Assembly: GCA_963713825.1 (NCBI GenBank)
Contig: CAVQNG010000003.1
Span: forward strand, 736,001 to 800,000
DNA: 64,000 nt
From: an uncultured Acidobacteriota bacterium
GTDB taxonomy: Bacteria; Acidobacteriota; Thermoanaerobaculia; Multivoradales; JAHEKO01
Direction: 5' to 3'
Part shown: positions 42,501 to 64,000 of the stretch, in pieces
Numbering within the stretch: position 1 is the stretch's first letter
Layout: every line of letters starts with the position of its first letter
Notes under the pieces: generated by a model
Seen by the model: the letters and a program-made list of their open reading frames with translations, nothing else
The model's database searches: none
What the model was told of the DNA's origin: nothing
Translations under genes and position numbers: made by a program

Positions 42501-43571
42501 GTCCACGCCGCCTCCGTCACGGACAACGGCCGACACGCCATTGACGTGCTGCGCGAGCAGGATCTCGACGTAGTGCGGCTCTTCTCGCCTGAGCACGGAT
42601 TGCGGGGCAGGGCGGCGGCCGGCGAGCACGTCGCGAGCGGTGTCGATGCGGTCAGCGGATTGCCTGTGGTGAGCCTCTACGGCGACCAGAAGCGGCCATC
42701 TCCCGCCTCTCTGGCCGATTTGGATGCGCTGGTGTTCGATCTACAGGGTGCCGGAGTCCGCTTCTACACCTACGTCAGCACCCTGATCCACTGCCTGGAG
42801 GCCGCAGCAGAGGCCGGCCTGGAGCTCATCGTGCTGGACCGCCCCAACCCCTTGGGAGGGGCTCGAATCGAAGGCCCGGTCAGCGCGCCCCGAGACCTGG
42901 TGCCAGCCTCGTTTGTCAATCTGGCGCCAGGGCCATTGGTGCACGGGATGACGCTCGGTGAGATGGCTCGCTTTGTCAATTCCCGTCTCGAGGTTCCGGC
43001 CCGCTTGACCGTCGTTCCCATGCTCGGATGGAACCGCAACATGGTCTGGGCGGACACCGGGCGGGACTGGATCTCTCCGTCACCCAATCTGAGGAGTGCC
43101 GAAGCCGCCCTGGCCTATCCCGGCACCGCGCTGCTGGAAGCGACCAATCTCTCCGAGGGACGCGGGACGCCGGACCCTTTCCTGTTGTTCGGAGCCCCCT
43201 GGCTGAGGCCCGACGAGCTCCAGTTGTCGGTACCGGGCTTCGCCCTCGAAGCCGCTCGCTTCACGCCCGTGGCTTCCAAGGCGGCGCCCCGCCCGAAGTT
43301 TCTTGACCAGTCATGCGTTGGCCGACGGGTTCGAATCATCGATGCCCATGCTGCGGAGCCTTACTCCTTGGGCATAGCCCTACTGCATGCGTCGATGGGT
43401 CGCGCCGAGTTCGAGTGGCTGAAAAACGGCGACAATCTCACTTCGTTGCTGGGAACACCCAGGGTGCTCGAAGACCTGAAGGTTGGAAGATCCATCGAGG
43501 AGATCCTGGCGGCGGATAGCGCCGACCACGACGCCTGGCGCGAGACCCGAAAGGGCGCCCTTCTCTACTAG
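39543..43571 (+). CDS. Triple fusion: GH3 beta-N-acetylglucosaminidase (NagZ) + serine hydrolase (AmiE-like) + DUF1343 exo-beta-N-acetylmuramidase (NamZ)
   Basis: Signal peptide; KHFPGHGDTSTDSH; ASLTK/YSD/HLG; FSPEHG, RFYTY, DRPNP, PSPN, SEGRGT. ATG overlaps the M14 stop. Confidence 0.92.
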   Translation: MRRFLRTTCLLSTLLAVALALPVVETAAVPVSDTNTQTLSPLPLSKSARKWVNSTLGDLSLEEKAAQLVMVRAHGLYQNPASESSRELVSEVRDLGVGGLVVFRSELESIPRLLNELQAAATVPLLVSADVERGMAFRVPEGTVPLPWAMAVGASRSEAAARFTGEVTAREGRALGIHWALAPVADVNNNPANPVINIRSYGEDPELVSRMVRSYIEGARQGGMLTTAKHFPGHGDTSTDSHHERPVVGVDRERLEAVELLPFRAAVAAGVDSIMTAHVALPAIDASGAPATLSPAISHALLRDELGFTGLVVTDALEMAGIRPAWAGEAAVRSVLAGADVVLLPSDVRVAIQSLVRAIEEGQLTEERLDASVRRILETKARLGLHKNRLVNREALGQSVARPQDLERALEVAKASVTVVRNESDILPLLAEKPLRILHVVISTGLRDRAIQGLPEAELRTRGIETRTFTLGREVSPETMDRILEAAPDYTHVLVSSFIWVRSSDDLSPSQARLIHRLGETGTPVIVLSFGSPYFLAEIPEVPVFVTTYGSAASSQRAAIAALFGEFAVRGKLPVTLPDLYPYGHGVELAQRAMTLPQAVPDEVGFRPGGFEEVDRVLQAFLDQKAFPGGVLAVGYQGTLAYLQPFGRLSYDDEAPEVTVDTIYDLASLTKVVATTIMAMILVDEGALELDKPVVDYLPLFLGSGKEDVTVRQLLTHSSGLVAYGDLYNEVSGKKAYLERIQGMELDYEPGSKSVYSDYGMILLGEILERVAGRPMDVFLEERVYGPLGMTDTGFLPGDDLLERIAPTEDDPWRGYMVRGEVHDENAHALGGIAPHAGLFSTATDLARYLQMILNGGVFEHKRIVSRRIVEEWTQRAEVPDSDRAIGWDTKSAENSSAGNLFSPNSFGHLGYTGTSMWVDPERELFVILLTNRVHPTRENNLIRQVRPAVADAVVKALEEPVVEVGLERVEAGELDSLKGKRLGLVVHAASVTDNGRHAIDVLREQDLDVVRLFSPEHGLRGRAAAGEHVASGVDAVSGLPVVSLYGDQKRPSPASLADLDALVFDLQGAGVRFYTYVSTLIHCLEAAAEAGLELIVLDRPNPLGGARIEGPVSAPRDLVPASFVNLAPGPLVHGMTLGEMARFVNSRLEVPARLTVVPMLGWNRNMVWADTGRDWISPSPNLRSAEAALAYPGTALLEATNLSEGRGTPDPFLLFGAPWLRPDELQLSVPGFALEAARFTPVASKAAPRPKFLDQSCVGRRVRIIDAHAAEPYSLGIALLHASMGRAEFEWLKNGDNLTSLLGTPRVLEDLKVGRSIEEILAADSADHDAWRETRKGALLY

Positions 43572-51106: not shown

Positions 51107-52027
51107 CTAGGACACGGCTCCTTCGAGGGCGACGAGCGTGCCGTTCGTGGCATCCAGGTGAACCTCGGTGCCGTAGGGTAGGGCCGTGTTGCGGTCTCCG
51201 TGGCCAAAAGTGCCACCGAAAACAACCGGAACAGCGAGCCTCTCGAGGCGCTCAACGAGGACCTCGCGGGTCGTGGGGTGCTGCTCGACCCCTACTTGGA
51301 TGTCGTCACAATCGGTGAAATCGCCAACCACGACTCCCGACACCCGGGACAGCACACCGGCCAGCTCGAAGTGCGTCAACAGTCGATCGACGCGGTAGGG
51401 AAGCTCTCCAACGTCCTCGAGAAACAGCACCGCACCGTCGAACTCGGGCTGCAGGCTTGTGCCCAGAAGTCGCGACAGCACTTCCAGGTTGCCTCCCAGA
51501 AGAGGCCCTCGCGCCACACCCGAAACCACATTCTCGAGCCCAAGCAACAGGATGCCGGGCTCCGGATTCTCGAGCAGTCTGAAGAGGGACTCTCTGTCTT
51601 CACGGGGAAGTCCCGCGAACTGACTGATCATCGGCCCGTGGATCGCTGCCACTCCGGACCGGGCGCATGTCGCGAGCAGCGCCGTGACATCGGAGAAACC
51701 GACGATCGGTTTCGGTCTCTCCAGAAGGGCCCGGCTGTCGATTTGCGCCAGGATTCGCAGCAAGCCGTACCCCCCACGGGCGAGAAAGATGGCTCTGCAC
51801 TCGGGGTCCGCGATGGCGGTGTTGAGCGCCTCCAACCGATGGTCGTCGTCGCCGGCCAGGAAGCCGTGCTTGGAGAAGAGGCTGGCCTCGTCGAAACATA
51901 GATCGTAGCGCCCCTCCAGGGCCTCGAGACCAGCCATGAACCGCTGCCTGTCGACCGGCCCTGAAGCCGCTACGACTCGAACCCGGTCCCCGACTTCCAG
52001 GCGGGGGGGGCGAAGGATCGCGCTCAT
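51107..52027 (-). CDS. ldcA: LD-carboxypeptidase (S66), cytoplasmic
   Basis: RGGYG, GFSDVT, HGP, GGNL, LEDVGE, FGH; no signal peptide. Confidence 0.9.
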   Translation of the reverse strand: MSAILRPPRLEVGDRVRVVAASGPVDRQRFMAGLEALEGRYDLCFDEASLFSKHGFLAGDDDHRLEALNTAIADPECRAIFLARGGYGLLRILAQIDSRALLERPKPIVGFSDVTALLATCARSGVAAIHGPMISQFAGLPREDRESLFRLLENPEPGILLLGLENVVSGVARGPLLGGNLEVLSRLLGTSLQPEFDGAVLFLEDVGELPYRVDRLLTHFELAGVLSRVSGVVVGDFTDCDDIQVGVEQHPTTREVLVERLERLAVPVVFGGTFGHGDRNTALPYGTEVHLDATNGTLVALEGAVS

Positions 52028-52122: not shown

Positions 52123-52836
52123 ATGCCTCAGAGAACCCGCTTCGCTGATCTCCTCTCTGCCTGTACCGGAATCGTACTTATGGCGGCGTTGGCAGGCTGC
52201 GCCTCCTCGCCGGCGATTCATGATCGACCCGTCTCCTTTTCTGCCGCCCGACAACAGGCAACGCTCGATTACATCGCCAAGCATTACGGTAAAGAACCCT
52301 TGGACATCTCGATCGAGCCCCGAATCATCGTTTTGCATTGGACGGCGATCCCCGACCTCGCCGGCTCTTTTGCTGCCTTCGAGGCCGAGCAGCTGCCGAG
52401 CTCTCGCCCAGACCTGGCAATGGCTGGACAGGTCAACGTCTCGATCCAGTTCCTCGTCGATCGCGACGGCACCGTCTACCGCCTCATGCCCGAGACGTGG
52501 ATGGCGCGGCATACGATCGGACTCAACTACAACTCCATTGGGGTCGAGAATGTCGGCGGTGGCGACAGCGTCGACAACATGACCGCTGCCCAGATCGAGG
52601 CCAACATCCGGCTCGTGCGTTACTTGGCCAAGAAATACCCATCGATCGAGTACCTGATCGGGCACTCGGAGTATCGCGAATTCGAAGGTCACCCCTTGTG
52701 GCTCGAACTGGACGACGACTACCGCACCGAGAAGGTCGATCCCGGAGATCGTTTCATGACGGCGGTCCGCGATGCGGTCGCTACGATCGGCTTGAAAGGT
52801 CCGGACGACGTTCGAGCCGAAAAGGAAGTCGAGTGA
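52123..52836 (+). CDS. N-acetylmuramoyl-L-alanine amidase (Amidase_2/PGRP-like), lipoprotein
   Basis: Lipobox LAGC; IVLHWT, FLVDRDG, ARH..GLN..SIGVEN, GH, K.DPG. Confidence 0.9.
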   Translation: MPQRTRFADLLSACTGIVLMAALAGCASSPAIHDRPVSFSAARQQATLDYIAKHYGKEPLDISIEPRIIVLHWTAIPDLAGSFAAFEAEQLPSSRPDLAMAGQVNVSIQFLVDRDGTVYRLMPETWMARHTIGLNYNSIGVENVGGGDSVDNMTAAQIEANIRLVRYLAKKYPSIEYLIGHSEYREFEGHPLWLELDDDYRTEKVDPGDRFMTAVRDAVATIGLKGPDDVRAEKEVE

Positions 52837-52860: not shown

Positions 52861-53988
52861 TCATTTGGACATCGGCCGCAGGAGGCCGACCGTCAATCTC
52901 GCCGCGCCACCGAGGCCGAGGCTTCTCAACGGCTGCTCGCGAGAGTGGATCGCCAGAAGTCGCGAGAACAAGACCGGGCTGTCAGACAGCGTCTCGATCA
53001 GGCGGTGGCGCAGGACGGGGCGCCGCTCGACGAAAAGTAGGCCAGCGATGAGAGCGTTGGGCAGGCGCGCGAGACGAGCTACTCGCCGTTCGTACTCGAG
53101 AAGGTCATCGTTCTCGATGGCTGCCGCCAAGGCCGACGCCTGAAGAAAGGCCATCGACAACCCCTCTCCAGTGATCGCGTCTCGATAGCCAGCCGCGTCA
53201 CCCACCAGGACCACTCTCTCTCTCGCTATCCGGGAGGCTCGGTGACGCAAAGGGCCCGCACCGCGGACCCGACTCGCGGGCTCTGCGCCCTGCAGTCGTC
53301 GTTCCAGAGCGGGAAATCTTGCGAGCAATTGCTCGAAATTGGCCTTCTGCCCACTCCACAGGAGAGCCACGCCAACCTCGCTCGACCCCACCGGCGTCAC
53401 GTAGGCCTCGCATTCAGATCCCCAGTAGACCTCGACCAGGTCGGTCCATGGCTGGCTCCGGAAGTGCCGCCTGACCCCGAAGCGCTGCGGTCCGATCGAC
53501 GATCCCTCGAGCCCAGCCCATCGCCGAACCCGGGACCTGAGGCCATCAGCACCCACAATCCACCGGGCCGAGATCCGCCCGCGCTCGGTCATCACTCCCT
53601 GAGCCGAGACCCCATGCACTTTTTCTCCCCAAACGAGCTCTGCGCCACCGTCCGCGGCCCTTTCCACCATGGCTGTGTGCAGCTCCGTGCGGCGTACTCC
53701 CATCGCACATCGTGAAGGGAACCGAGCCTCTGCAACCGTCTCGCCGTCGATATATCGGATGCCCCTGATCTTGTAGCAGGCTCTCTGATCGAGATCGATC
53801 CCCATCGCCTTCAGTCGCGCCACGCCTTCGGGCATGATCCCCTCACCGCATGCCTTGTCGACCGGGGGTCGCGACCCCTCCAAGACCATGACCTCGATTC
53901 CCCGCTGACGCAGCTCGATCGCCGTGGCCAGACCGGCCGGTCCGCCACCAATCACCACCACCTCGCGATCATGTGCTCTTCCAGCCAC
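52861..53988 (-). CDS. FAD-dependent oxidoreductase/monooxygenase (geranylgeranyl-reductase-like; FtpE/SrsC-like)
   Basis: GGGPAG, DKACGEG, GADG, GDAAGY.D.ITGEG. Confidence 0.85.
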   Translation of the reverse strand: MAGRAHDREVVVIGGGPAGLATAIELRQRGIEVMVLEGSRPPVDKACGEGIMPEGVARLKAMGIDLDQRACYKIRGIRYIDGETVAEARFPSRCAMGVRRTELHTAMVERAADGGAELVWGEKVHGVSAQGVMTERGRISARWIVGADGLRSRVRRWAGLEGSSIGPQRFGVRRHFRSQPWTDLVEVYWGSECEAYVTPVGSSEVGVALLWSGQKANFEQLLARFPALERRLQGAEPASRVRGAGPLRHRASRIARERVVLVGDAAGYRDAITGEGLSMAFLQASALAAAIENDDLLEYERRVARLARLPNALIAGLLFVERRPVLRHRLIETLSDSPVLFSRLLAIHSREQPLRSLGLGGAARLTVGLLRPMSK

Positions 53989-55741
53989 CTCGCCTCCTCC
54001 GTCGCCAACGCTGGAAGGCCCTGGAAGACCGCCACCACGATCTGGTCAACACCAGCGCAGAGACTGGGCCAGCCGGAGTCAGCTCGTCAGCCAAGAATCG
54101 CCGCAGGGTTTCCGCCCGCCGAATCTTGCCCGAAGAGGTTCGCGGCAGGGTCCCCGGCTCCAGCACCACGACCCGGTCAACCGCTATGCCACTCGTCTTG
54201 AGGACTTCTTGGCGGCAACTCTCCTCGATTGCCTCGGGGGTCTGCCGAGAACCACTCGAGCTGCGTTCGACAAAAAGCCACACCGCCTCGGCCTCAGAGC
54301 TCTCTGGGCGATGACTGACCGCTGCCACGCAACCCTTGCGGACGCTCTTCAAGCCCGCTAGGGCAAATTCCAACTCCTCTGGTGCGTGGTTCTGCCCGCG
54401 CACGATCAGGACATCCTTCGCCCTGCCGGTGATGAACAGCTCGCCTTCGACACGAACGCCGAGATCTCCTGTGTCGAGCCACCCGTCCCTGAGCACCGCT
54501 GCAGTGCTGCCGGGACGGTCCAGATACTCCTTCATGAGAGATGGCCCCTGTACCCAGATCCGGCCCACAGAACCGTCTCTGTTCTCCTGTCCAGCCTCGT
54601 CCCGGACCGAGATTCGAAATCCGGGAAGTGGTTGCCCCACGGACACCAGTTCGATGCCATCTGGCTCCGGTATTGCCAAGCCTTGCTCGGACAGGGCTCG
54701 GCGCTCGAATCTCTGACTGAGAAAGCCCCGTTCAATAGGGCTGAAGGTTACAGCCAGAGAAGCCTCCGAAAGACCGTACACCGGCGTCAGTGCCCGCGGT
54801 GAGAATCCCCATCGGGCAAAACGCTCTGCAAACCTCCGCAACACCGCGGGCGCGACCGGCTCCGAGCCGTTCAGGGCCACCTTCCAGCAGGACAGGTCGA
54901 CCCCCTCCATCGCTTCGTCGGACACCTTGTCGACGCAAAGCCCATAGGCGAAGTTGGGGGCCGGAGAAACGGTTGCGCGATAGCGGGAGATGGCTCGCAA
55001 CCAGACCTCGGGGCGCGCCACGAAGACCTCGGGTGGGATCAGGGTCAACACCGATGGCCGCTCCAGTGCCGGGAAGACGCAGCCGATCAATCCCATGTCG
55101 TGGTAGAGCGGCAGCCACGAAGCGCCGGAGTGGCGCACCTCGGCCGTGTCTGGCCAGTATCGATTCAGCGCCTTGACCTGCGCCATCACCGCGCGGTGGG
55201 TAAGCGCTACCGGTTTCGGGTCTACCGTCGTTCCCGACGAGAATTGCACCAGGGCGAGGTCCTCTGGGCTCGCCTCAGGAAGACGGCCATCACCGCTCGG
55301 CAGTTCGTCGAGGACCAGACAACCCAACTCGGGGTCGGCCCGCTCCATGGTCTGGCCGAGAATGCCGCGAACTCGCGACGAAACCAGCACGACCCGCGCT
55401 GAGACTGCCTGTAGAAGGCTTGCTGTTCGAGCGTGGTACTCCTCCAACCTTCCCAGGCGAACCGGCGGGTAGAGCGGTACGGGGATAGCACCGACCAACA
55501 AGGCTCCAAAGAAGGCGAAAAAGAAGCCCTTTTCAGTGGGGAACACCAGCGCGACCCTGTCACCACGACTCACCCCGAGCCGACGAAGCCCCGAGGCCAC
55601 CCTGAGCGACTCTTCGAAGACGTCCGACCAACTCAGCCACTCGGGTTGCTCTCTTCTGTCGAGCAGGCGAAGACCCGCGTCTGGAAACTCCACCGCTCTC
55701 TCCAGGGCCTTCTGCAGCGTGGTGGCTTTCGCTCTCTGCAT
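53969..55741 (-). CDS. Fatty acyl-AMP ligase (FAAL)
   Basis: QFSSGTT.PK, SWLPLYHDMGLIG, PNFAY, YGLSE, TGDLG, GRAKD, PRTSSGK. Start uncertain (ORF to 55816). Confidence 0.92.
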   Translation of the reverse strand: MQRAKATTLQKALERAVEFPDAGLRLLDRREQPEWLSWSDVFEESLRVASGLRRLGVSRGDRVALVFPTEKGFFFAFFGALLVGAIPVPLYPPVRLGRLEEYHARTASLLQAVSARVVLVSSRVRGILGQTMERADPELGCLVLDELPSGDGRLPEASPEDLALVQFSSGTTVDPKPVALTHRAVMAQVKALNRYWPDTAEVRHSGASWLPLYHDMGLIGCVFPALERPSVLTLIPPEVFVARPEVWLRAISRYRATVSPAPNFAYGLCVDKVSDEAMEGVDLSCWKVALNGSEPVAPAVLRRFAERFARWGFSPRALTPVYGLSEASLAVTFSPIERGFLSQRFERRALSEQGLAIPEPDGIELVSVGQPLPGFRISVRDEAGQENRDGSVGRIWVQGPSLMKEYLDRPGSTAAVLRDGWLDTGDLGVRVEGELFITGRAKDVLIVRGQNHAPEELEFALAGLKSVRKGCVAAVSHRPESSEAEAVWLFVERSSSGSRQTPEAIEESCRQEVLKTSGIAVDRVVVLEPGTLPRTSSGKIRRAETLRRFLADELTPAGPVSALVLTRSWWRSSRAFQRWRRRRRGGWKST

Positions 55742-55748
55742 CACAGCT

Positions 55749-55991
55749 TCAACCGACGCTCTTCTGCTCAATGACTCGCACCAGGTCTCCGACGGTCTCG
55801 ATTCCCGCCTCGTCATCCTCGTCCAAGCAAATCCGAAAGTGGTTCTCTACCTCGACCGCCAGTGTCAGGAGCTTCAAGGAGTCGAGCTCCAGGTCCTCGA
55901 TCAGGTGCATATCCGGGCGCAGCTCCCCCTTCCAGCCCAGATGCCTCTGCGCTACCAGAGCCACACCTTCCAAGGTCGACTCCTGTTTCAT
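55749..55991 (-). CDS. Acyl carrier protein
   Basis: 80 aa, acidic, DLELDSL phosphopantetheine motif. Confidence 0.9.
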   Translation of the reverse strand: MKQESTLEGVALVAQRHLGWKGELRPDMHLIEDLELDSLKLLTLAVEVENHFRICLDEDDEAGIETVGDLVRVIEQKSVG

Positions 55992-56518
55992 TCAACCACC
56001 TCGGCTCCCTCTCGCAGCGCCGTCTCTTCCACTCTGATGCGCGTCCTCAGGAGACTGGCGTTGAGAATGCTGTAGATCAGAGCGGTAAGCCAAGCGGTGT
56101 GGACCAAGGGAAGAGCTGCGATCTCCAAGACAACGGCCAGATAGTTCGGATGGTCGAGGAAACGAAATGGGCCCGCTGTGATCCTGGATTCTTTGGCCCG
56201 CAGCACCCGCGTCGTCCAGCGCCGGCCCAAGGTCACGACCACCCAATAGCGCAGAGCCATCGCCACCATCAAGAGCAGCAGCATCGCCAGCGCCAGCGGT
56301 GGAATCAGTGGCCGCTCCAGGAACCATACTTCCATGGGGGCCGCCAACAGAAAGGTCGAGTGGAGCATGACCATCCAAGGATAGTGGGACTCGCCCACCT
56401 CGACGGCGCCACGAGCCAGCAACCAGCGCCGGTTGCGACTCGCCAGCCGCAACTCCACGAGCCGCTCCAGACCAACCAATGCGATCAGGGCGGTAAAAAG
56501 CCACCGACTGTCTACCAT
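55988..56518 (-). CDS. Isoprenylcysteine carboxyl methyltransferase-family membrane methyltransferase (SrsB/BpsB-like)
   Basis: ERLVEL...RN, LG.RWTTR, GPFRFL.HPNY, RI..EE.AL. Confidence 0.9.
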   Translation of the reverse strand: MVDSRWLFTALIALVGLERLVELRLASRNRRWLLARGAVEVGESHYPWMVMLHSTFLLAAPMEVWFLERPLIPPLALAMLLLLMVAMALRYWVVVTLGRRWTTRVLRAKESRITAGPFRFLDHPNYLAVVLEIAALPLVHTAWLTALIYSILNASLLRTRIRVEETALREGAEVVE

Positions 56519-57561
56519 TCCAACAGCACCAGCTCGGAGCAGAAGCCCGGCCCCATGGCCAGCAGCATTCCATAGCTGCCCGGTTCGGGTGGTCGAGATC
56601 TCATCGTCTCTTGCAGCACGAGAAGGACAGATGTCGAGGAGAGATTTCCAACCGTCTCGAGGCTCTCTCTGGTCAAGTCCAACGCGTCGGGCTGGAGCTC
56701 GAGGGCGGTCTCGAGGGCGCTCACGACCTTCGGTCCGCCAGGATGAGCCACCCAGGAGACGATATCGCTGCGGCTCAGCCCCTGTGCGCCGAGAAAAGCG
56801 TCGACGTCTTGTCGCAGGTTCCGCCGGGCCATCTCCGGGACGTCGGCCGAGAGAACGACCTGGAAACCCTTCTCGGAGATGTCCCAGCCCATGACCCTCT
56901 CGGTATCTGGATAAAAGACCGAGCGAGTGGCCACAATGCGCGGACCTGATGCCGGCCGCTCCTCACCCACCACGATTACGGCCGCTGCACCATCGCCGAA
57001 CAGGCCTGATGAAATGAGGTTGGGAATCGATAGATCCTGAAGCTGCAATGTCAGAGAACAAAGCTCCACCGAGAGCAGCACCGCAACCTCATCGGGGTAG
57101 GCCTTCACATAGTCGGCTGCCCTGGAGATCCCCGCCGCTCCGCCGACGCATCCCAGGCCGAAGATCGGCAGACGCTTGACTCTCGGCGACAGATCCAGCC
57201 GATTGACCAGACGCGCATCGATGGACGGTGTCGCCACGCCCGTCACCGAAACAAAAATAAGGCAGTCGACGTCGGCAGGTTCGAGCCTGGCCTGGGCGAG
57301 GGCTTCGCGAACGGCCTGCTCGCCGACATCCTGGGCGACTCGTATCCAAGCGTCATTGGACTGCCCCCAGCCCTCGAGCTGCGAATACTCTTCGATGGGA
57401 AGGGCCAGGTGTCTTCCACCAACCAACACATTCTTGTGCAGGGCCTCGAGACGGCCCTGGTTGTAGAGCTGCCGAGACCAGGTCCGTTTGAACTCCTCCA
57501 GCAACCGCTCTTGAGAGTAGTAATGGGGAGGAAACGCCGCACCCACGGATGCGATCTTCAT
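56512..57561 (-). CDS. Type III polyketide synthase
   Basis: Catalytic GLGC, VELCS, LFGDGA, HPGG, GNLSS, GPGF. Confidence 0.95.
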   Translation of the reverse strand: MKIASVGAAFPPHYYSQERLLEEFKRTWSRQLYNQGRLEALHKNVLVGGRHLALPIEEYSQLEGWGQSNDAWIRVAQDVGEQAVREALAQARLEPADVDCLIFVSVTGVATPSIDARLVNRLDLSPRVKRLPIFGLGCVGGAAGISRAADYVKAYPDEVAVLLSVELCSLTLQLQDLSIPNLISSGLFGDGAAAVIVVGEERPASGPRIVATRSVFYPDTERVMGWDISEKGFQVVLSADVPEMARRNLRQDVDAFLGAQGLSRSDIVSWVAHPGGPKVVSALETALELQPDALDLTRESLETVGNLSSTSVLLVLQETMRSRPPEPGSYGMLLAMGPGFCSELVLLEW

Positions 57562-57802
57562 TGCTTGAACACCTCGATCTTCCGCCCGGTCAAGACTCGT
57601 ACTCCGAGAGTTGGACTACTGCCCATTGTACGGGTTCGCGCGCGGGCTGGATCCGGTTCATTCGACCCCCTTGGGGTGGTCGATCATAGACCACGCGACT
57701 CCTTCGCGGTTCCCTCGAGCATGGGCTGGCTGTAGACTCGTCCACGCTCTACCCCTGGGTGATCCGAAACTCGCTGCATTTCGTATAGGCCCAGTAGACG
57801 TC

Positions 57803-58558
57803 ATGCGCCCGCTTCAGCCACAGCCTCTGCTCCTCGTCTTCACTCTCGGGCCGCACCGTGAGCAGCGACGCCGCAGTCTGCTGCCCGCGTGGCTACAGGG
57901 TGCCGAGCGGCGGCTCCACGAACAAAGCCTGGAATCGATTCTCGCCGCAGGGCGTTCTGCTGGCTGTGATTGCCGAGTGGCGGCACCATCGCCTCTCGAC
58001 CTGACCCCGAACTCGAAGCAGATCGAACAAACAGGCCGGTCCTTCGGAGAGCGACTCCGGGGCTCCATCCGGTCGGTCGAGTCGGACTCTGCGGGGCGGC
58101 CTACGATCGTCGTGGGGTCCGACTGCCCAGAGCTCTCGGCGGATCATCTGCGCGAGACCCTGCGCCATCTCGCCGACAATCCAGACCGCGTCGTGATCGG
58201 CCCAGCATCCGATGGCGGCTTTTATCTCTTGGCCTTCAATCGCCCTGTCGATACCGAGCTGTCCCGCGTCCGCTGGTGCCGGGAGGACACACTGAAGTGC
58301 CTGCTGGCGGCTCTACAGGAGAGCGGGCGCCCTGTCACCCTTCTCGAAGCGCTCGCAGATCTCGACACCACGAACGATCTCGAAAGATGGCTGGCGGCCA
58401 AGGTTCCAGCTCTCTCCGCATGGCGCCAGCTTCACCACTACCTCCGGCGCCTACTGTCTGGTCTCCGGCGCCCTTCAGTTCCCGCCGTGATGGGGACACC
58501 GATACCGGTCTCTGCCCATCCCCGCCGGGGACGCTCTCCTCCAGCCCGTCGACACTGA
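57803..58558 (+). CDS. DUF2064 / TIGR04282-like (CofC/GT-A fold) transferase
   Basis: Q.G.SFGERL, VGSDCP, IGPA.DGGFYL, DLD...DL; C-terminal tail ending RGRSPPARRH. Confidence 0.85.
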   Translation: MRPLQPQPLLLVFTLGPHREQRRRSLLPAWLQGAERRLHEQSLESILAAGRSAGCDCRVAAPSPLDLTPNSKQIEQTGRSFGERLRGSIRSVESDSAGRPTIVVGSDCPELSADHLRETLRHLADNPDRVVIGPASDGGFYLLAFNRPVDTELSRVRWCREDTLKCLLAALQESGRPVTLLEALADLDTTNDLERWLAAKVPALSAWRQLHHYLRRLLSGLRRPSVPAVMGTPIPVSAHPRRGRSPPARRH

Positions 58559-58658
58559 GAGCCGATCATCTCCTGCCGCCGTCGAAACAGTCGGCTGGCC
58601 GAAAACCCTGTCGTCCGACCCGGAGATTCGCGTCTCCCTTTCGAGGTAGTTAGACATC

Positions 58659-59816
58659 ATGACAACAGTCAGTGTGGAGCAAGTGGTCAGGGACCGCTAC
58701 AGCCTGGGTGCCGAAACGCGAGTGGCAGCGCTGTGCTGCCCAACGGACTATGACCCGCGGTACCTCGAGGTGATCCCGCAGGAAGTCCTCGAGCGCGACT
58801 ATGGTTGCGGCGACCCCAGCCAATACCTCAAAGAGGGCGAGACGGTCCTCGACCTGGGCAGCGGCACGGGGAAGATCTGCTTCATCGCCGCTCAGGTCGT
58901 GGGGGAGACGGGGCGCGTTATCGGCATCGACATGACTCCGGAGATGCTGACCGTGGCGCGCCAGGCAGCACCAGCGGTCGCCTCGCAGCTCGGCTTTTCC
59001 AACGTCGAGTTTCGACGTGGCCGAATCCAGGACTTGAGGCTCGACCTCGACCTGTTGGAGGAAGTCATGGTCGAGAATCCGGTGGGCGACGTGGAAGGCC
59101 TGCTAGAGATTCAGGGACGCAGCGACGAGTTACGTGCCAACCAACCTCTCGTAGACAATGACTCGGTCGATGTCGTGGTTTCCAACTGCGTCCTCAACCT
59201 GGTGGACAATCGCCAGAAGGAGGTGCTATTCGAGGAGATCTATCGCGTCCTGCGGCGCGGCGGGCGCGCCGTTATCTCCGACATCGTCAGTGACGAACCG
59301 GTTCCAGATGCGATGCAGAACGACCCCGATCTTTGGAGCGGCTGTCTCTCTGGAGCGCTGACGGAAGAGGGGTTCTTGGCCGCCTTCGAAGAGGCCGGGT
59401 TTCACGGTGTCCGCATCCTGATTCGCCAGCAGGAGCCCTGGCAAACGGTGAGTGGCATCGAGTTCCGCTCGGTGACCGTGGAGGCCTTTAAGGGCAAAGA
59501 GGGACCCTGTTGGGAGCGCAATCAGGCCGTCATCTACAGGGGCCCGTTCAAGGAGGTTCTGGACGACGACGACCACCGACTAGAGCGCGGCCGACGCTAC
59601 GCGGTCTGTGACAAGACCTACAACCTCTACCGTCAGGAGCCCTATCGCGACTCCTTCGAGTTCGTGGAGCCGCTGGAGGAGATTGCCCTCGAGGAGGCCC
59701 AGCCCTTCGACTGTTCTAGAACTCCTCTGCGTCAGCCCAAGGAAACCAAGGGGCGGGACTACGATCTGACGTCTACAGCGGCCGAATCCTGCTGCGGCCC
59801 GGAGGGCTGCTGTTAG
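58659..59816 (+). CDS. arsM: Arsenite S-adenosylmethionine methyltransferase-like protein
   Basis: Four AS3MT-type Cys motifs (LCCP, YGCGDP, SNCVLNL, WSGCLSGAL); LDLGSGTG; C-terminal CC..CC. Confidence 0.82.
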   Translation: MTTVSVEQVVRDRYSLGAETRVAALCCPTDYDPRYLEVIPQEVLERDYGCGDPSQYLKEGETVLDLGSGTGKICFIAAQVVGETGRVIGIDMTPEMLTVARQAAPAVASQLGFSNVEFRRGRIQDLRLDLDLLEEVMVENPVGDVEGLLEIQGRSDELRANQPLVDNDSVDVVVSNCVLNLVDNRQKEVLFEEIYRVLRRGGRAVISDIVSDEPVPDAMQNDPDLWSGCLSGALTEEGFLAAFEEAGFHGVRILIRQQEPWQTVSGIEFRSVTVEAFKGKEGPCWERNQAVIYRGPFKEVLDDDDHRLERGRRYAVCDKTYNLYRQEPYRDSFEFVEPLEEIALEEAQPFDCSRTPLRQPKETKGRDYDLTSTAAESCCGPEGCC

Positions 59817-60700
59817 TGCCGACCCTCGAGGCCTCTGAGGCCCCGGCGCCGCGAGTCGCCCTGAGCGCACTCGACACACTCTGGTTCCAGGTGGCCGGCA
59901 CGGTGTGCAACCTGGCTTGCACCCACTGCTTCGTTTCCAGCTCTCCCACCAACAGGACCCACGACTTCCTCTCCTTGAAAGCGATCCTCCCTTATCTCGA
60001 AGAAGCCTCGAAGCTCGGGGTCAAGGAGCTCTACTTCACTGGCGGCGAGCCCTTCTTGAACCCGGAGTTGGAATCGATTCTCGTTAGAGCTCTCGACGTC
60101 GGCCCCGTAACGGTGTTGACGAACGGCCTGCTGTTGGACCCGCCTCGCTGCCGCCGGCTGAGCAGGTTCGCCGAGCAGACCGACTACTCTCTCGATTTTC
60201 GGATCTCTCTGGATGGCTACGCTGCCGAGACCAACGACCCCATTCGCGGTGAGGGCACCTTTGAGAGAATCCTCCAGGGCGTGTCGAACCTGGTTGCGGC
60301 GGGCTTGAATCCTGTCATTACGGTCACCGAAGTCTACGAGGAGAACGGCTCCGTGCATGGCAAGGAGCGCTTTTTCGACCTCCTGCGAAGCCTGGGGGTG
60401 GCCAAGCCGCGGCTCAAGATGCTACCTGTTTTTCAGATCGGGGCCGAAGCAGAGCGCACCGGTGCCTACGAGACTTGGCAACGACTGCGAGACTCGGACA
60501 CCCCGGATGAGGGTTGGAGCCATCTCCAGTGCAGCTCTTGCCGGATGGTGACGGACCAGGGTGTGTGGGTCTGTCCCATTCTCGTCAACGAGCCACAAGG
60601 CAAGATGGGACAGACCCTGTCCGACACACTCGCGCCGTTCGCCCTGGATCACCCTGCCTGTTGGACATGCCACGTCTACGGAGTCTCCTGCAAGACATGA
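59816..60700 (+). CDS. Radical SAM protein, ArsS-related
   Basis: LDTLWFQV.G..CNLACTHC..SSP, TGGEP, ISLDG, RG.GTF, C-terminal CSSCRM..CP..C..C...SC. Confidence 0.8.
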   Translation: MPTLEASEAPAPRVALSALDTLWFQVAGTVCNLACTHCFVSSSPTNRTHDFLSLKAILPYLEEASKLGVKELYFTGGEPFLNPELESILVRALDVGPVTVLTNGLLLDPPRCRRLSRFAEQTDYSLDFRISLDGYAAETNDPIRGEGTFERILQGVSNLVAAGLNPVITVTEVYEENGSVHGKERFFDLLRSLGVAKPRLKMLPVFQIGAEAERTGAYETWQRLRDSDTPDEGWSHLQCSSCRMVTDQGVWVCPILVNEPQGKMGQTLSDTLAPFALDHPACWTCHVYGVSCKT

Positions 60701-61674
60701 GCGACGACACGGACCACGGCAAGCTGACCGCCCATAGAGGTCTGGCCACCTGGGGCGAGCGGCTGGTTCCTCTCGACAGGTTTCGCCAGGCAACCGAGAG
60801 TGCGGGCCGCCGATTGTCCGAGGTCGAACGCGTGGCGGAGCGAGGCGATTTTCTCGCCCGAGAGCAAGACGCCCTTCCGCACGAGGGCCCCTACTCGAAG
60901 ATCGCGGTCTTCGGTGGCGTCTACAACAACCATCGCGCCTTGGAGGCGGTCTTGGCGGCTGCCCAGAGGAGCGGCGCCGAAGCCGTCTACTGCCTCGGTG
61001 ACCTCGGAGGGTTCGGACCTTCGCCGGAAAAAGTCTGGCCACTGCTGCTCGACGGTGGGGTCGAGACGATCCAAGGCAACTACGAGGCATCGTTGTCCAG
61101 TGGCCGAGAGGACTGCAACTGCGGCTATACCGACCCCAGGGACAACCACTTCGCAACACTGTCCTACCGCTACACCGCCGAGAACTGCTCCTCCGAATTC
61201 AAACGCTGGATGGGCGAGTTACCGCTCCGGCGGCGTGTCCGCGTCGGCCAGCGCAAACTTCTCCTGGTGCACGGGTCACCCCGCCGGATCAACGAATTCT
61301 TGTTTCATTCCACCTCGCCCGTGGCCTTTCTCGAGGTGCTCCTGGACCAGGAATGCTGCGACGGCCTGCTCTGCACCCACACCGGCCTCCAGTGGCACCG
61401 CCGCCTGCCCTCGGGCCGCGATGTGGTGAACGTGGGCGTCATCGGCAGGCCATCCAACAACGGCCAGACCGAGGTCTGGTACTCCCTGCTCGAAGATCGG
61501 GACGGCGTTCTGGGAGTGCAATTGCTTCCCCTCGAGTACGATCATGTCTCTCTGGCGGCCGAGATGCAGCAGCAGGGTCTGCCGCAGGAGTTCATCGACA
61601 CTATCCTCCAGGGCTGGTGGACGACCTGCCTGGAGATCCTGCCCGCTCGCGAACGCGCCAGGTCGCGTTACTAG
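60697..61674 (+). CDS. Atypical Cys-rich metallophosphoesterase-fold protein
   Basis: CLGD, GNYE and HGSP retained; DxH replaced by GVY and GHTH by THTG; DCNCGY. ATGA overlap with the radical SAM gene. Confidence 0.82.
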   Translation: MSDDTDHGKLTAHRGLATWGERLVPLDRFRQATESAGRRLSEVERVAERGDFLAREQDALPHEGPYSKIAVFGGVYNNHRALEAVLAAAQRSGAEAVYCLGDLGGFGPSPEKVWPLLLDGGVETIQGNYEASLSSGREDCNCGYTDPRDNHFATLSYRYTAENCSSEFKRWMGELPLRRRVRVGQRKLLLVHGSPRRINEFLFHSTSPVAFLEVLLDQECCDGLLCTHTGLQWHRRLPSGRDVVNVGVIGRPSNNGQTEVWYSLLEDRDGVLGVQLLPLEYDHVSLAAEMQQQGLPQEFIDTILQGWWTTCLEILPARERARSRY

Positions 61675-61721
61675 GGCCCCAGAATCTTGGAAGAAGAGTC
61701 CATTCCCCTCGGAGACCCCTT

Positions 61722-62930
61722 GTGAGCTCGAATCCTCGACGTATCGCCATCATCGGAGCCGGCCCGACCGGACTCGAAGCCGCCCTGGCCGCCGCCGAGG
61801 CGAACCTGTCTTTCACTCTCTACGAAGCAGGCCCCACGACGGCCGCCTTCCTGCGAATGTGGGGCCACGTCAGGCTCTTCTCCCCCTGGGACTTGAGTGT
61901 CTCCCCCCGGGCTCGCAAAGCGCTGGAGACAGCAGGCCACGACGTACCCTCGGGCCCCGACTGTCCGACGGCCGAGGAGTTGGCTGATGCGGTCTTCGAG
62001 CCACTGGCGAAGCTGCCCCTTCTCGAGGACAACCTCCGCTTGCGCACCCCTGTTCTGGCCGTGAGTCGGGAGGGCCTTCTCAAACACGAGGAGATCGGTA
62101 CTCCAGGACGGGCCCAGCACCCCTTCCGGCTTCTTCTCACCGATTCTCAGGATCGTGAGTGGACCGAGCAGGCCGAGATCGTGATCGACTGCACCGGCAA
62201 CTACGGCACCCCCAACTCCCTGGGCGATGGCGGTATCCCGGCCCCAGGTGAAGAAAACCTGGAGGATGTCATCGTGCGGTGGGTCCCCAACTTCGCGATC
62301 CAGGAGGGTGTCTGGGCCGGCAAGGAGATCCTGCTGGTCGGCGCCGGTCATTCGGCGAAGACCGCTGCGGTGGAGCTGGCGGCTCTGGCGCAGCGACACC
62401 CCAGTACCCGGATTCTCTGGGCTGTCCGACGAGCCGAGCCGAGCTGGGAAGTCCAACAGGACGACCCGCTTCCAGAGCGTGCCCACCTCATTCGTCAGGC
62501 GCAAGCGATCGCCACCGGAGGCTCGGCCAATGTCGAGATGATCACCGGTGTGGTGGTGGACGCACTCGAGAGAAAGGGTCAAAGGGTGGGCGTCACCTTC
62601 AGGGATCAGCAAGGCGAGCACTGCAGTGTAGAGGTCGACCGAGTTCTCTCCCTGACGGGCTTTGTCGGCGATCACCAGCTCTACCGTCAACTCCAGGTCC
62701 ACGAGTGCTATGCGACCTGCGGTCCCATGAAGCTGGCCGCCTCGCTGCTCTCGTCGAGCTCCGATTGTCTTACTCAGACCAGCCAGGGCATCGAAACCCT
62801 GACCAACCCCGAGCCCGACTTCTACATCCTGGGATCCAAGTCTTACGGCAGAAATAGCTCGTTCTTGATGCGCCTGGGCTGGCAACAAGTGGACGATGTT
62901 TTCGACTTCGTCACCACCGGAGTCGCCTAG
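61722..62930 (+). CDS. FAD/NAD(P)-dependent flavoprotein oxidoreductase (FMO/ArsO-like)
   Basis: IIGAGPTG, W.HV.LFSPW, DCTG, VGAGHSA, ECYA..GPMKLAA, G.KSYGR; GGAGA RBS before GTG. Confidence 0.85.
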   Translation: MSSNPRRIAIIGAGPTGLEAALAAAEANLSFTLYEAGPTTAAFLRMWGHVRLFSPWDLSVSPRARKALETAGHDVPSGPDCPTAEELADAVFEPLAKLPLLEDNLRLRTPVLAVSREGLLKHEEIGTPGRAQHPFRLLLTDSQDREWTEQAEIVIDCTGNYGTPNSLGDGGIPAPGEENLEDVIVRWVPNFAIQEGVWAGKEILLVGAGHSAKTAAVELAALAQRHPSTRILWAVRRAEPSWEVQQDDPLPERAHLIRQAQAIATGGSANVEMITGVVVDALERKGQRVGVTFRDQQGEHCSVEVDRVLSLTGFVGDHQLYRQLQVHECYATCGPMKLAASLLSSSSDCLTQTSQGIETLTNPEPDFYILGSKSYGRNSSFLMRLGWQQVDDVFDFVTTGVA

Positions 62931-62980
62931 TCCATCCCTGCGCCGGCGGGAATCTCCTCGGAGCCCTTAATCCCTTCTTC

Positions 62981-63415
62981 TCACGCCGCCTCGTCTCCCC
63001 CTTCTCTGGGGAACTGGGCCCTGAGACACTCCGCAAAGCTACGGCAGGCATCGGTGACGGTGAAAATACCGGCCAGCCTGCCCTCCTTGACCACCAGGAC
63101 GGAGCCGGTTTGGCGTCGAGCCATCTTCGCGAGGACCTGGTCCAGTGGCTCCGACAAGTCGACCTCGAAGGTTTCCTGGTGAGCAACGTCGGCGACTTTG
63201 AGGGCCCCGCCGCCAGCTCTCTCGGCACGCCGAAGATCCGACTCGCCAACGACGCCAATGAGTTCTCCGTGATCCATCACGGGAAGATGATGGAAGCCGA
63301 ACCCCACCATCATCTCCTTGGCCTCCGTCGTCGACGCAGTCGCCTCGATGGAGTGCGGGAAGGGGGTCATTACGGCCTTTACCGGTGGAATGCTCTTCGC
63401 TGTGCGGGGCCACAT
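62981..63415 (-). CDS. CBS domain protein
   Basis: Tandem CBS motifs (HHLPV..GELIGVV, LVV..GRLAGIFT..D). Confidence 0.88.
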   Translation of the reverse strand: MWPRTAKSIPPVKAVMTPFPHSIEATASTTEAKEMMVGFGFHHLPVMDHGELIGVVGESDLRRAERAGGGALKVADVAHQETFEVDLSEPLDQVLAKMARRQTGSVLVVKEGRLAGIFTVTDACRSFAECLRAQFPREGGDEAA

Positions 63416-63418
63416 GAT

Positions 63419-64000
63419 TCATCCTCCCTCAGGAGACAGCCAGGCGGGCAGCTGTGTCGCCCTGTCGAGGCAGATCAAGGGTTCTGCCTTCTCGAGGACG
63501 CTGCGGCTCTCTGAGCCGCTACAGACGGCGACCACGCCCGTGCTGGCGTTGTGGGCCATCTGCAAATCGTGAATCGTGTCGCCGATCATCAGGGTTCGAT
63601 CGGTCTTCACGCCCAACTCGTCCGAAATATCGAGAATCATCTGTGGGTCGGGCTTGCTGCGGGCCTCGTCCACCGTCCGGGTAGCCAGGAAGAACTCCCC
63701 CATCCCTGTCGCTTCGAGATCCCGGCTCAGACCCTTGCGACCCTTGGCGGTAGCCAGGCCCAGAAGATACCCCTCTTCTCGCAGGTCCTCCAGAAGAGAG
63801 GGTACGCCAGGAAAGAGTCGTGGCTGATGAGAATAGGTCTCGAGCCAATGCCGACCGTAGGTTTCCACGATGGCGTGAAACATCGCCTCGTCACACCCGG
63901 GAGCAAAGCGTTCCACGGTCTCTCGCAAACCCAAACCGATGGCGCTGCGAATCTGCTCGTCAGGGACCGGTGGTTGATCGAGGTCCCGCAAAGCCTCCTG
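63419..64000 (-). CDS. HAD-IA family hydrolase (phosphoglycolate phosphatase-like), 5' end off-window
   Basis: IGLGL, LFPG, AT.K, SKPDP, MIGDT..DL.MA. Confidence 0.88.
   Translation of the reverse strand, partial: QEALRDLDQPPVPDEQIRSAIGLGLRETVERFAPGCDEAMFHAIVETYGRHWLETYSHQPRLFPGVPSLLEDLREEGYLLGLATAKGRKGLSRDLEATGMGEFFLATRTVDEARSKPDPQMILDISDELGVKTDRTLMIGDTIHDLQMAHNASTGVVAVCSGSESRSVLEKAEPLICLDRATQLPAWLSPEGG

Follow-up and report, generated by a model that had tools for sequence, protein, structure and literature searches.

The DNA analysed here is a 64,000-nucleotide stretch from an uncultured Acidobacteriota bacterium (assembly GCA_963713825.1, contig CAVQNG010000003.1, positions 736,001 to 800,000; hereafter the window). 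A first-pass annotation, made from the letters alone, had marked five of its genes as a putative organoarsenic biosynthesis operon encoding a DUF2064 protein, an ArsM-type methyltransferase, an enzyme of the radical S-adenosylmethionine (SAM) kind, a Cys-rich phosphoesterase-fold protein and a flavoprotein. All five open reading frames (ORFs) are present on the + strand at 57803-62930, with the Cys motifs and the C-terminal CC..CC tail of ArsM as described:

57562-57802, no strand: presumed promoter region of the five-gene operon, between the divergent type III polyketide synthase (PKS) operon (- strand) and the DUF2064 gene; its role is presumed from position only.
57803-58558, + strand: DUF2064 protein of 251 aa, TIGR04282-related, with a CofC/MobA-like nucleotidyltransferase fold (PF09837, TIGR04282).
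58659-59816, + strand: ArsM/AS3MT-type As(III) SAM methyltransferase (by homology) of 385 aa with a C-terminal CC..CC tail (NCBIfam, solved ArsM structures).
59816-60700, + strand: radical SAM protein of 294 aa from an unmodelled twitch/SPASM-type family (PF04055, 81 bits; CX3CX2C at 31-38).
60697-61674, + strand: metallophosphoesterase-fold protein of 325 aa, Car1-related (PF12850, 31 bits; predicted fold).
61722-62930, + strand: flavoprotein of about 402 aa with two dinucleotide-binding domains, TrxR/FNR-like (Pyr_redox_3 49.5 bits, Pyr_redox_2 41.1 bits).

The genes from ArsM through the phosphoesterase overlap, as had been noted: the ArsM stop codon and the GTG start of the radical SAM gene have one base in common (TAGTG), and the radical SAM and phosphoesterase genes meet in an ATGA overlap. 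The first in-frame start of the flavoprotein gene past the phosphoesterase stop is the GTG at 61722, preceded by GGAG, and this last junction is therefore free of overlap, as the first-pass annotation implied; an alternative start at 61671 was rejected because the codon there is CTA. No sigma-70-like promoters or terminators were predicted in 57400-63500. A search of Rfam gave no match at gathering level across the window and none at E<=1 over 57300-58800, and hence no riboswitch lead. We also scanned the window with Pfam for known arsenic resistance genes, covering 38 heuristic ORFs of at least 90 aa that start before 52000, nine flanking ORFs and the five cluster genes. In the set of 38, ORF 52123-52836 replaced the call at 51107-52027, which was covered by a separate scan. 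None of these ORFs carries an ArsR, ArsC, ACR3 or ArsB domain, in agreement with the earlier statement that arsR, arsC, acr3 and arsB are missing nearby.

PF13847 (106.7 bits) and further methyltransferase models place a class I SAM methyltransferase domain in the ArsM-type protein. Its best curated model is NF040538, the arsinothricin-type ArsM, with 346.8 bits (cut-off 500; positions 21-340 of 356), and the scores on NF008823 (205.4 bits, cut-off 263) and NF038099 (122.2 bits, cut-off 400) likewise stay below the curated cut-offs. The cysteines lie at 26/27, 50, 177 and 229, with C378 C379 and C384 C385 in the tail. The segments YGC50G, SNC177V and C229-L-S-G-A-L align to the solved arsenic methyltransferases 4kw7/4fr0 (HMMER, E ~3e-36), and C26/C27 stands just ahead of the aligned block, at the expected place of the first Cys. 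C26, C27, C50, C177 and C229 are conserved in all 37 homologues from clusters and fusion proteins. The DUF2064 protein scores 78.9 bits on PF09837 (cut-off 25.8), which bears out one of the three model matches proposed as checks by the first-pass annotation; the other two scored below their cut-offs, as TIGR04282 aligns over its full length (model 1-189 of 189) with 96.9 bits against a cut-off of 134, and TIGR04167, the ArsS model, is not reached by the radical SAM protein.

On TIGR04167 the radical SAM protein scores 58.4 bits (cut-off 300), with only the core aligned (model 6-147 of 303), and its best NCBIfam match is the Rv1681 family NF049973 with 106 bits (cut-off 380). Across 89 sequences (family members and fusions), C31, C35, C38, C239 and C253 are kept in 89, C282 and C285 in 88 and C292 in 87. 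A MoaA-like CX2CX10C motif was considered and rejected, since C242 is kept in only 63/89. The structural model (mean predicted local distance difference test score, pLDDT, 85) has a hairpin at 242-251 and a helix at 280-288 in the C-terminal region, and the nearest solved folds found with Foldseek are BlsE (top), SkfB, anSME, CteB and SuiB. The C-terminal hairpin and helix, the conserved cysteines and the fold neighbours together identify a twitch/SPASM-type enzyme, and on the predicted model an auxiliary Fe-S cluster is probable. We had also considered the last three cysteines as an ArsL-like As(III)-binding tail. This reading was downgraded because C239, C253, C282 and C285 are spaced like a twitch auxiliary cluster, in line with the Foldseek neighbours; C292 is the only conserved tail Cys outside that set.

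The phosphoesterase-fold protein has no NCBIfam match. Its AlphaFold model (pLDDT 87, from a 43-sequence alignment) is closest to the Ap4A hydrolase SapH, 3qfm (TM-score 0.80 on the target), followed by 3rqz and 1nnw. A profile alignment to 3rqz shows how far the catalytic motifs have changed in the window family. The canonical SDVHAN of motif I has become GGxYxN (D to G74, H to Y76), GNHD of motif III has become GNYE (N128 retained, H to Y129) and GHTH of motif V has become THTG (H228 retained, second His to G230); the GD of motif II (D102) and the His of motif IV (H192) are retained. The protein thus departs from the full catalytic motif set of a dinuclear metallophosphoesterase (DxH, GD, GNH[DE], H, GHxH), and because of these losses one of the two metal sites is predicted to be gone. 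What is invariant in the 43 sequences is D139-C140-x-C142-G-Y, together with P147, D149, N150 and C311. A profile search placed the protein in a family of 359 clusters at 50% identity (E<=1e-30); among representatives of at least 240 aa from the best 150 of these clusters, DCxCG occurs in 44/85. An ESM Atlas search returned only clusters named 'metallophosphoesterase family', mostly from Acidobacteriota.

Relatives of this protein occur in arsenic resistance operons. A tblastn search hit 29 plasmid records with 27-34% identity, and three of the four plasmid contexts examined are ArsR-headed ars operons with ACR3 or arsM. The gene order is arsR, DUF6428, GNAT, arsC, hypothetical, ACR3, phosphoesterase, phosphoesterase in Mucilaginibacter robiniae; arsR, DUF6428, phosphoesterase, GNAT, ACR3 in Hymenobacter sublimis; and arsR, phosphoesterase, arsM in Paraclostridium bifermentans. 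The window protein is 30% identical to the Hymenobacter homologue (E 5e-37) and 27% identical to that of Paraclostridium (E 2e-34). In M. robiniae (L081, 7001-8493) the first of the tandem phosphoesterases has GNYD and a Cys-x-Cys pair, and the second has GNHD and lacks the pair.

In PMC12124457, the Paraclostridium protein is given as ~40% identical to Car1, and Car1 is described as an As(V) reductase of Rufibacter tibetensis in which Cys74 and Cys76 are essential (PMC12124457, citing Shen et al. 2024). Aligned with the Hymenobacter and Paraclostridium ars-operon proteins, the window protein has its C140/C142 opposite C74/C76 and its GNYE opposite GNYD. In a tree, the window family and the ars-operon phosphoesterases fall into separate clades (100/100 support, with long-branch caveats). 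By sequence comparison, the window protein is a Car1-type relative built on the same template, and it is not a member of the ars-operon clade, because it has its own clade and its motifs I and V are altered where those of the ars-operon proteins are intact. Both groups have the phosphoesterase fold, a Tyr for the His of GNH[DE] (GNY[DE]), the aligned Cys-x-Cys and an association with arsM. They differ at their ends, the window family having acquired ~65 extra N-terminal residues and a W-W-T-T-C tail, and in their partners: the Car1-type relatives are coupled to ArsR and ACR3, the window protein to a radical SAM enzyme. With its closest phosphoesterase relatives in ArsR-controlled resistance operons, the description of the cluster as biosynthetic rather than detoxifying is not supported as it was written.

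The flavoprotein has both dinucleotide-binding motifs, and its best matches are weak (YpdA model, 47.6 bits, cut-off 340; the TrxR-like structure 2zbw). No conserved Cys pair was found across 49 homologues, for which reason a role as disulfide reductase was rejected; an ArsO-like monooxygenase was rejected as well (ArsO 22 bits, cut-off 425). Given this lack of a conserved Cys pair and the three proteins in which it is joined to a radical SAM domain, the flavoprotein is probably the NAD(P)H-dependent electron donor of the radical SAM enzyme. The first-pass annotation had proposed two extra tailoring enzymes; these are better described as a Car1 relative with a Cys pair and a probable electron donor.

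We next consider how far the five genes stay together. A one-genome-per-species scan with an 18-sequence radical SAM alignment matched at least 600 stretches, at least 585 of which encode a relative, and synteny was counted in the best 80 of these loci, 43 of which have at least 7 kb on both sides (full-flank loci). The counts were taken from tblastn with the window proteins and extra neighbours rather than from gene calls, because the heuristic gene caller mis-called some genes (for example an antisense ORF over the flavoprotein gene):

Phosphoesterase fold: 75/80 loci; 41/43 full-flank loci.
Flavoprotein: 61/80 loci; 40/43 full-flank loci.
ArsM: 28/80 loci; 19/43 full-flank loci.
DUF2064: 29/80 loci; 20/43 full-flank loci.
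AhpD-like (CMD): 12/80 loci; 6/43 full-flank loci.
PstS: 9/80 loci; 8/43 full-flank loci.
Type III PKS: 37/80 loci; 25/43 full-flank loci.

Where the phosphoesterase gene is present, its start is at most 400 nt away from the radical SAM gene in 72 of 75 loci; of the five loci that lack it, two break off 2 and 9 nt past the radical SAM gene. All five window genes occur together in 14/80 loci, in four different arrangements, and the arrangement in the window is thus not due to chance. ArsM takes three different positions among its 28 loci. These frequencies show that the conserved core consists of the radical SAM enzyme and the phosphoesterase-fold protein, usually with the flavoprotein, and that ArsM and DUF2064 are mobile accessories. 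The conserved unit is therefore smaller than the five-gene set that had been proposed.

Fusion proteins link the same components. A search for radical SAM homologues longer than 515 aa (E<=1e-30) gave 16 matches, comprising 11 with an ArsM-type domain, three with a flavoprotein and two of other kinds. Ten of the ArsM/radical SAM fusions are intact, and all ten have C26, C27, C50, C177 and C229. In nine the radical SAM domain comes first and the ArsM CC tail closes the protein; P0122 is the one with the order inverted. Three that were scanned reach 238-245 bits on NF008823 (cut-off 263), and the named sources include Candidatus Kuenenia and Thermodesulfobacteriota. The eleventh (P0121, from locus L033) was discounted because its linker looks frameshifted and the ArsM tail is lost; two further proteins, P0133 (radical SAM/phosphoesterase) and P0137 (phosphoesterase/flavoprotein), were rejected as fusion evidence for their linkers, which resemble frameshifted sequence. 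The fusions argue that ArsM and the flavoprotein work directly with the radical SAM enzyme. Together with the synteny in 28/80 loci, the ten intact natural fusions sustain the earlier proposal that ArsM is tied to this radical SAM family.

Fusions of the core pair are far more frequent. We classified the best 120 of 122 phosphoesterase-fold homologues longer than 569 aa (E<=1e-20): in 117 the phosphoesterase domain precedes a radical SAM domain, in one (P0138) the order is reversed, and two remained unclassified. GNY[DE] is found in 120/120, DCxCGY in 119/120 and WW[TS][TS]C in 117/120. Where a source is named it belongs to the Actinomycetota; Streptomyces peucetius, S. oryzae and S. apocyni are among them. 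The radical SAM domain of the actinobacterial fusions belongs with the Rv1681 family (258-270 bits, cut-off 380), is 36% identical to that of the window over the core only, and lacks the Cys-rich C-terminus. The radical SAM enzyme and the phosphoesterase-fold protein probably act as one enzyme, for which the fusions are the strongest evidence. Some fusions have a third domain, which is methylthioadenosine phosphorylase-like in P0180 (TIGR01694, 151.8 bits) and an MFS transporter in P0188 and P0208.

At E<=1e-3, 5233 of 7195 candidates are homologues of the radical SAM protein; identity is 72% or more in each of the best 120, whose named members come mostly from Thermoanaerobaculia. The pair itself was found in Acidobacteriota, Gemmatimonadota, Myxococcota, Fibrobacterota, Elusimicrobiota and on one alphaproteobacterial plasmid, and in fused form in Actinomycetota.

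Several genes around the related loci have a connection with arsenic. NCBI gives the name 'arsenosugar biosynthesis' to three accessory families, TIGR04282, TIGR04283 and TIGR04169. A TIGR04283 glycosyltransferase is encoded above cut-off in locus L063 (224.7 bits, cut-off 182) and a TIGR04282 copy above cut-off in L070 (147.2 bits, cut-off 134); AhpD-like genes, present in 12/80 loci, reach at best 107.8 bits on TIGR04169 (cut-off 120). Relatives of all three families thus travel with the radical SAM gene, and the arsenosugar-type accessory link drawn by the first-pass annotation stands. PstS/C/A genes occur in 9-10/80 loci. PstSCAB-like genes follow ArsM in eight loci, and in L024, which has no ArsM, they directly precede the radical SAM gene; on the model of the PstS family (cut-off 206.6) their binding protein reaches 153-162 bits. 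Loci L057 and L080 have a phosphate-selective porin and a PhnS-like ATP-binding cassette (ABC) system. In Acidobacteria bacterium Mor1 (L048, 2768-7814, - strand), genes for DUF2064, the flavoprotein, ArsM, a MIP channel and a PHO4 transporter are consecutive on one strand, the last two directly downstream of ArsM, and the radical SAM and phosphoesterase genes diverge from them. By score the MIP channel is closest to AqpZ-like proteins, and it is a candidate entry route for As(III).

A related cluster in a cultured isolate lies on plasmid p546-1 of Roseomonas haemaphysalidis (L083, 880-7840), the fourth of the plasmid contexts, and it is not an ars operon. Its order is TIGR04282 (the PGAP name), DUF547, a 459-aa radical SAM protein, a 315-aa radical SAM protein, a PhnD-type ABC transporter and a phosphoesterase; the 315-aa protein matches the radical SAM protein of the window along the whole length (33% identity, E 3e-40). 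One of the two radical SAM genes resembles TrsS/Tes, the phosphoesterase has Cys-x-Cys, and a MerA/Lpd-like flavoprotein and a TIGR04283-like glycosyltransferase are encoded close by. In two other loci (L066, 9271-9771; L067, 3644-4087) a GNAT acetyltransferase gene stands between the radical SAM and phosphoesterase genes, its product having a weak likeness to the arsinothricin-resistance acetyltransferase ArsN1 (30 bits, cut-off 170). L058 (6768-7100) and L059 (1872-2207) have a thioredoxin gene just upstream of the cluster and MacA/MacB-like exporter genes downstream.

Together these observations suggest that what the window contains is a conserved arsenic-transforming system in its full, five-gene form, and that this system may be a third ArsM-coupled radical SAM arsenic pathway beside those of ArsS (arsenosugars) and ArsL (arsinothricin); we put this reading as a whole at a probability of about 0.5. 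Gene content, motifs, predicted folds, synteny and fusions are observed, whereas the arsenic substrate we infer from homology and genomic context. In the proposed scheme, arsenate would enter the cell, for which several related loci have their own Pst, Pit or Phn-type importers. Cys140-x-Cys142 of the phosphoesterase-fold protein would reduce the arsenic and/or hold it as As(III), and electrons from NAD(P)H would pass via the flavoprotein to the iron-sulfur clusters of the radical SAM enzyme, which would then add a carbon substituent to the thiol-bound As(III). Methylation of the arsenic would fall to the ArsM-type enzyme, whose gene is translationally coupled in the window and which in other organisms is joined to the radical SAM domain, and the TIGR04282-like DUF2064 protein may elaborate the product further.

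The carbon-arsenic bond could be made in two ways. The radical SAM enzyme might add a 5'-deoxyadenosyl group, as in ArsS, a route that is favoured by the arsenosugar-type accessory genes and the one methylthioadenosine phosphorylase-like fusion. Alternatively, it might abstract hydrogen from a co-substrate and let the carbon radical couple to the thiol-bound arsenic, analogous to C-S bond formation by sactisynthases, a route that is favoured by the radical SAM fold neighbours. The accessory genes favour an arsenosugar-like riboside as product. A bolder extension, which we hold to be speculative and rather doubtful, is that the pair is a widespread, unrecognised C-As bond-making enzyme in which a reductase-derived subunit hands As(III) to radical chemistry, giving rise to a new organoarsenical class or to the missing bacterial entry to arsenolipid/arsenobetaine-type compounds; in Thermoanaerobaculia the products might even be arsenic-bearing phenolic lipids, made via the divergent fatty-acyl-AMP ligase/type III PKS operon.

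Several observations weigh against an arsenic pathway of this kind. None of the window proteins reaches the curated cut-off of an arsenic-named NCBIfam model, and the window has no arsenic regulator or exporter. The radical SAM folds nearest to ours abstract hydrogen from peptides or sugars and are not known arsenic enzymes. The phosphoesterase lies outside the ars-operon clade on a branch of 1.58 changes per column, with long-branch warnings, and of the residues retained by the ars-operon relatives, motif I of the window family lacks the Asp and the His and motif V the second His. ArsM is missing from the locus DNA of 52/80 loci and of 24/43 full-flank loci, and 13/43 full-flank loci have none of ArsM, DUF2064 and the AhpD-like gene.

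The phosphate- and phosphonate-type importers allow the pathway to be read in reverse, as anaerobic breakdown of organoarsenicals. These would be taken up via phosphate/phosphonate ABC transporters, reduced to trivalent arsenicals by the Car1-like protein and cleaved at the C-As bond by the radical SAM enzyme, and the As(III) set free would then be methylated by ArsM; the radical SAM enzyme would be an oxygen-independent counterpart of the ArsI lyase, by analogy with the C-P lyase PhnJ. PhnD-type, PhnS-like and PstS-like binding-protein transporters do lie inside or beside the cluster, and the hosts belong for the most part to Thermoanaerobaculia and to further lineages known from metagenome-assembled genomes. 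The substrates of ArsI are trivalent, and a reductase-like partner would suit such a need. The radical SAM protein, however, lacks similarity to PhnJ, the nucleotidyltransferase- and glycosyltransferase-like families TIGR04282 and TIGR04283 point to the building of a product, and the ArsM/radical SAM fusions would join methylating and demethylating activities, an awkward pairing. We regard breakdown as unlikely.

The fold neighbours SkfB, anSME, CteB and SuiB raise another possibility, because they modify proteins or peptides. The radical SAM enzyme could be a maturase of its phosphoesterase-fold partner, as anSME is for sulfatases, and the matured protein would serve phosphate scavenging or arsenate handling when phosphate is scarce, with ArsM merely detoxifying co-imported arsenate. 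Such a role would account for the obligate pairing and frequent fusion of the two proteins, would fit the Pst, Pit and porin-P genes alongside, and could explain the degenerate catalytic site of the partner as one that is rebuilt by modification. Yet the top fold match, BlsE, acts on a nucleoside, no C/S-x-P-x-R-type target motif was seen by eye around C140/C142, and the ArsM- and flavoprotein-radical SAM fusions, which have no phosphoesterase domain, fit consecutive small-molecule steps better. A maturase is distinctly unlikely on these grounds.

We consider it quite improbable, too, that the cluster stands for ordinary arsenic detoxification, with a Car1-like reductase and ArsM placed by chance beside an unrelated radical SAM enzyme and flavoprotein, or that it forms part of a type III PKS lipid pathway. 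The order arsR, phosphoesterase, arsM in Paraclostridium is indeed a plain resistance operon. In our loci, though, the phosphoesterase pairs with the radical SAM gene (75/80 loci, 118 fusions) rather than with ArsM (28/80), and ArsM is itself fused to a radical SAM domain. The lipid variant draws on the Srs-like alkylresorcinol-type operon that diverges from the cluster at 52861-57561 on the - strand:

56512-57561, - strand: type III PKS.
55988-56518, - strand: ICMT-type methyltransferase.
53969-55816, - strand: acyl-AMP ligase.
52861-53988, - strand: FAD monooxygenase.

A PKS gene is the divergent neighbour in 37/80 loci, all of them closer relatives. It occurs in none of the 17 loci whose radical SAM protein is less than 56% identical to the window's, and in neither the Gemmatimonadota nor the Mor1 loci. 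Being confined to the closer relatives, the operon was treated as lineage synteny.

Very unlikely, finally, is the same chemistry on another thiophilic element (antimony, selenium or tellurium): for Cys-rich sites taken alone As(III) and Sb(III) are not distinguishable, the latter is handled by ArsM-type enzymes and MIP channels as well, and several neighbouring NCBIfam models are selenoprotein families, but the phosphate-type importers match arsenate and not Se, Te or Sb, and the phosphoesterase relatives lie in operons with ArsC, ACR3 and arsM.

Other features of the window lie outside the cluster. Downstream of the cluster, a CBS-pair protein and a HAD hydrolase are encoded on the - strand. 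A second radical SAM protein, with a Radical_SAM_N2 domain, is encoded at 16944-18518 (- strand), 40 kb from the cluster; homologues of it are present in the DNA of 11 related loci (for example L007, 256-2514), and in L053 (5394-7043) and L055 (6061-7677) they lie directly upstream of the radical SAM/phosphoesterase pair. Beyond these, the window has chromosomal housekeeping genes and a set of peptidoglycan-recycling genes. The latter, at ~23-52 kb, include two LD-carboxypeptidases, an amidase, a SIS-domain protein, a sodium:solute symporter and a BadF-type ATPase. In their midst, a 1407-aa ORF at 39348-43571 (+ strand) combines a GH3 glycosidase, a beta-lactamase-fold domain and a NamZ exo-muramidase, and an IS481-type transposase (rve, HTH_32, LZ_Tnp_IS481) is encoded at 30709-31740 (+ strand).

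To our knowledge, ArsS and ArsL are the only enzymes known to make non-methyl carbon-arsenic bonds, both being radical SAM enzymes that work with ArsM, and the origins of arsenolipids, arsenobetaine and many soil organoarsenicals are, as far as we know, still open. If the proposed pathway is real, a third ArsM-coupled radical SAM family would supply concrete candidate genes for the origins of organoarsenicals. The newly described phosphoesterase-type arsenate reductases would gain a broader role, and the actinobacterial Rv1681-family radical SAM fusion proteins a first functional lead. Cultured carriers are at hand in R. haemaphysalidis with plasmid p546-1 and in the three Streptomyces species named above; a further one may be Acidobacteria bacterium Mor1, the record of which carries no label of a metagenome-assembled genome.

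How does the system compare with those already described? We found no published description of a radical SAM/phosphoesterase system, in a literature search that omits most subscription journals. The radical SAM family passes no curated NCBIfam model, and as judged from NCBIfam models and published features, rather than from real sequences of the two enzymes, the window protein is neither ArsS nor ArsL. This agrees with the earlier view of a cluster that is arsenic-linked and unlike the ArsM/ArsS pair. The Rv1681 family (NF049973) is its best model, yet one whose cut-off is not reached, and the actinobacterial fusions join the same Cys-x-Cys phosphoesterase family to Rv1681-family domains.

With ArsM and ArsS, which make cyanobacterial arsenosugars, the cluster shares an ArsM-type methyltransferase beside a radical SAM enzyme and, around both systems, the accessory families that NCBIfam names TIGR04282, TIGR04283 and TIGR04169. 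The radical SAM enzymes themselves differ, as seen in the low ArsS-model score of the window protein (58.4 bits against 300) and its twitch/SPASM fold neighbours. We know of neither an obligate phosphoesterase-fold partner nor a flavoprotein for ArsS. With ArsL and ArsM of the Burkholderia gladioli arsQML operon, which makes arsinothricin, it has in common the logic of a radical SAM enzyme followed by ArsM, and both radical SAM proteins end in a Cys-rich tail. The ArsL model NF040542 is not among the best 25 of the 61 NCBIfam matches of the window protein. According to PMC8552651 and bioRxiv 10.1101/2024.02.01.577332, BgArsL is 428 aa long, has its CX3CX2C at 194-201 and ends in an RCCLKC tail that binds As(III). 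The window protein, in contrast, has 294 aa, CX3CX2C at 31-38 and the tail A-C-W-T-C-H-V-Y-G-V-S-C-K-T, and thus neither the ArsL architecture nor RCCLKC, and the permease ArsQ is part of arsQML but not of the window cluster. The type of system, ArsM with a radical SAM enzyme, is already known; the obligate reductase-like partner and the flavoprotein set the window cluster apart, neither being known as a part of the two described systems.

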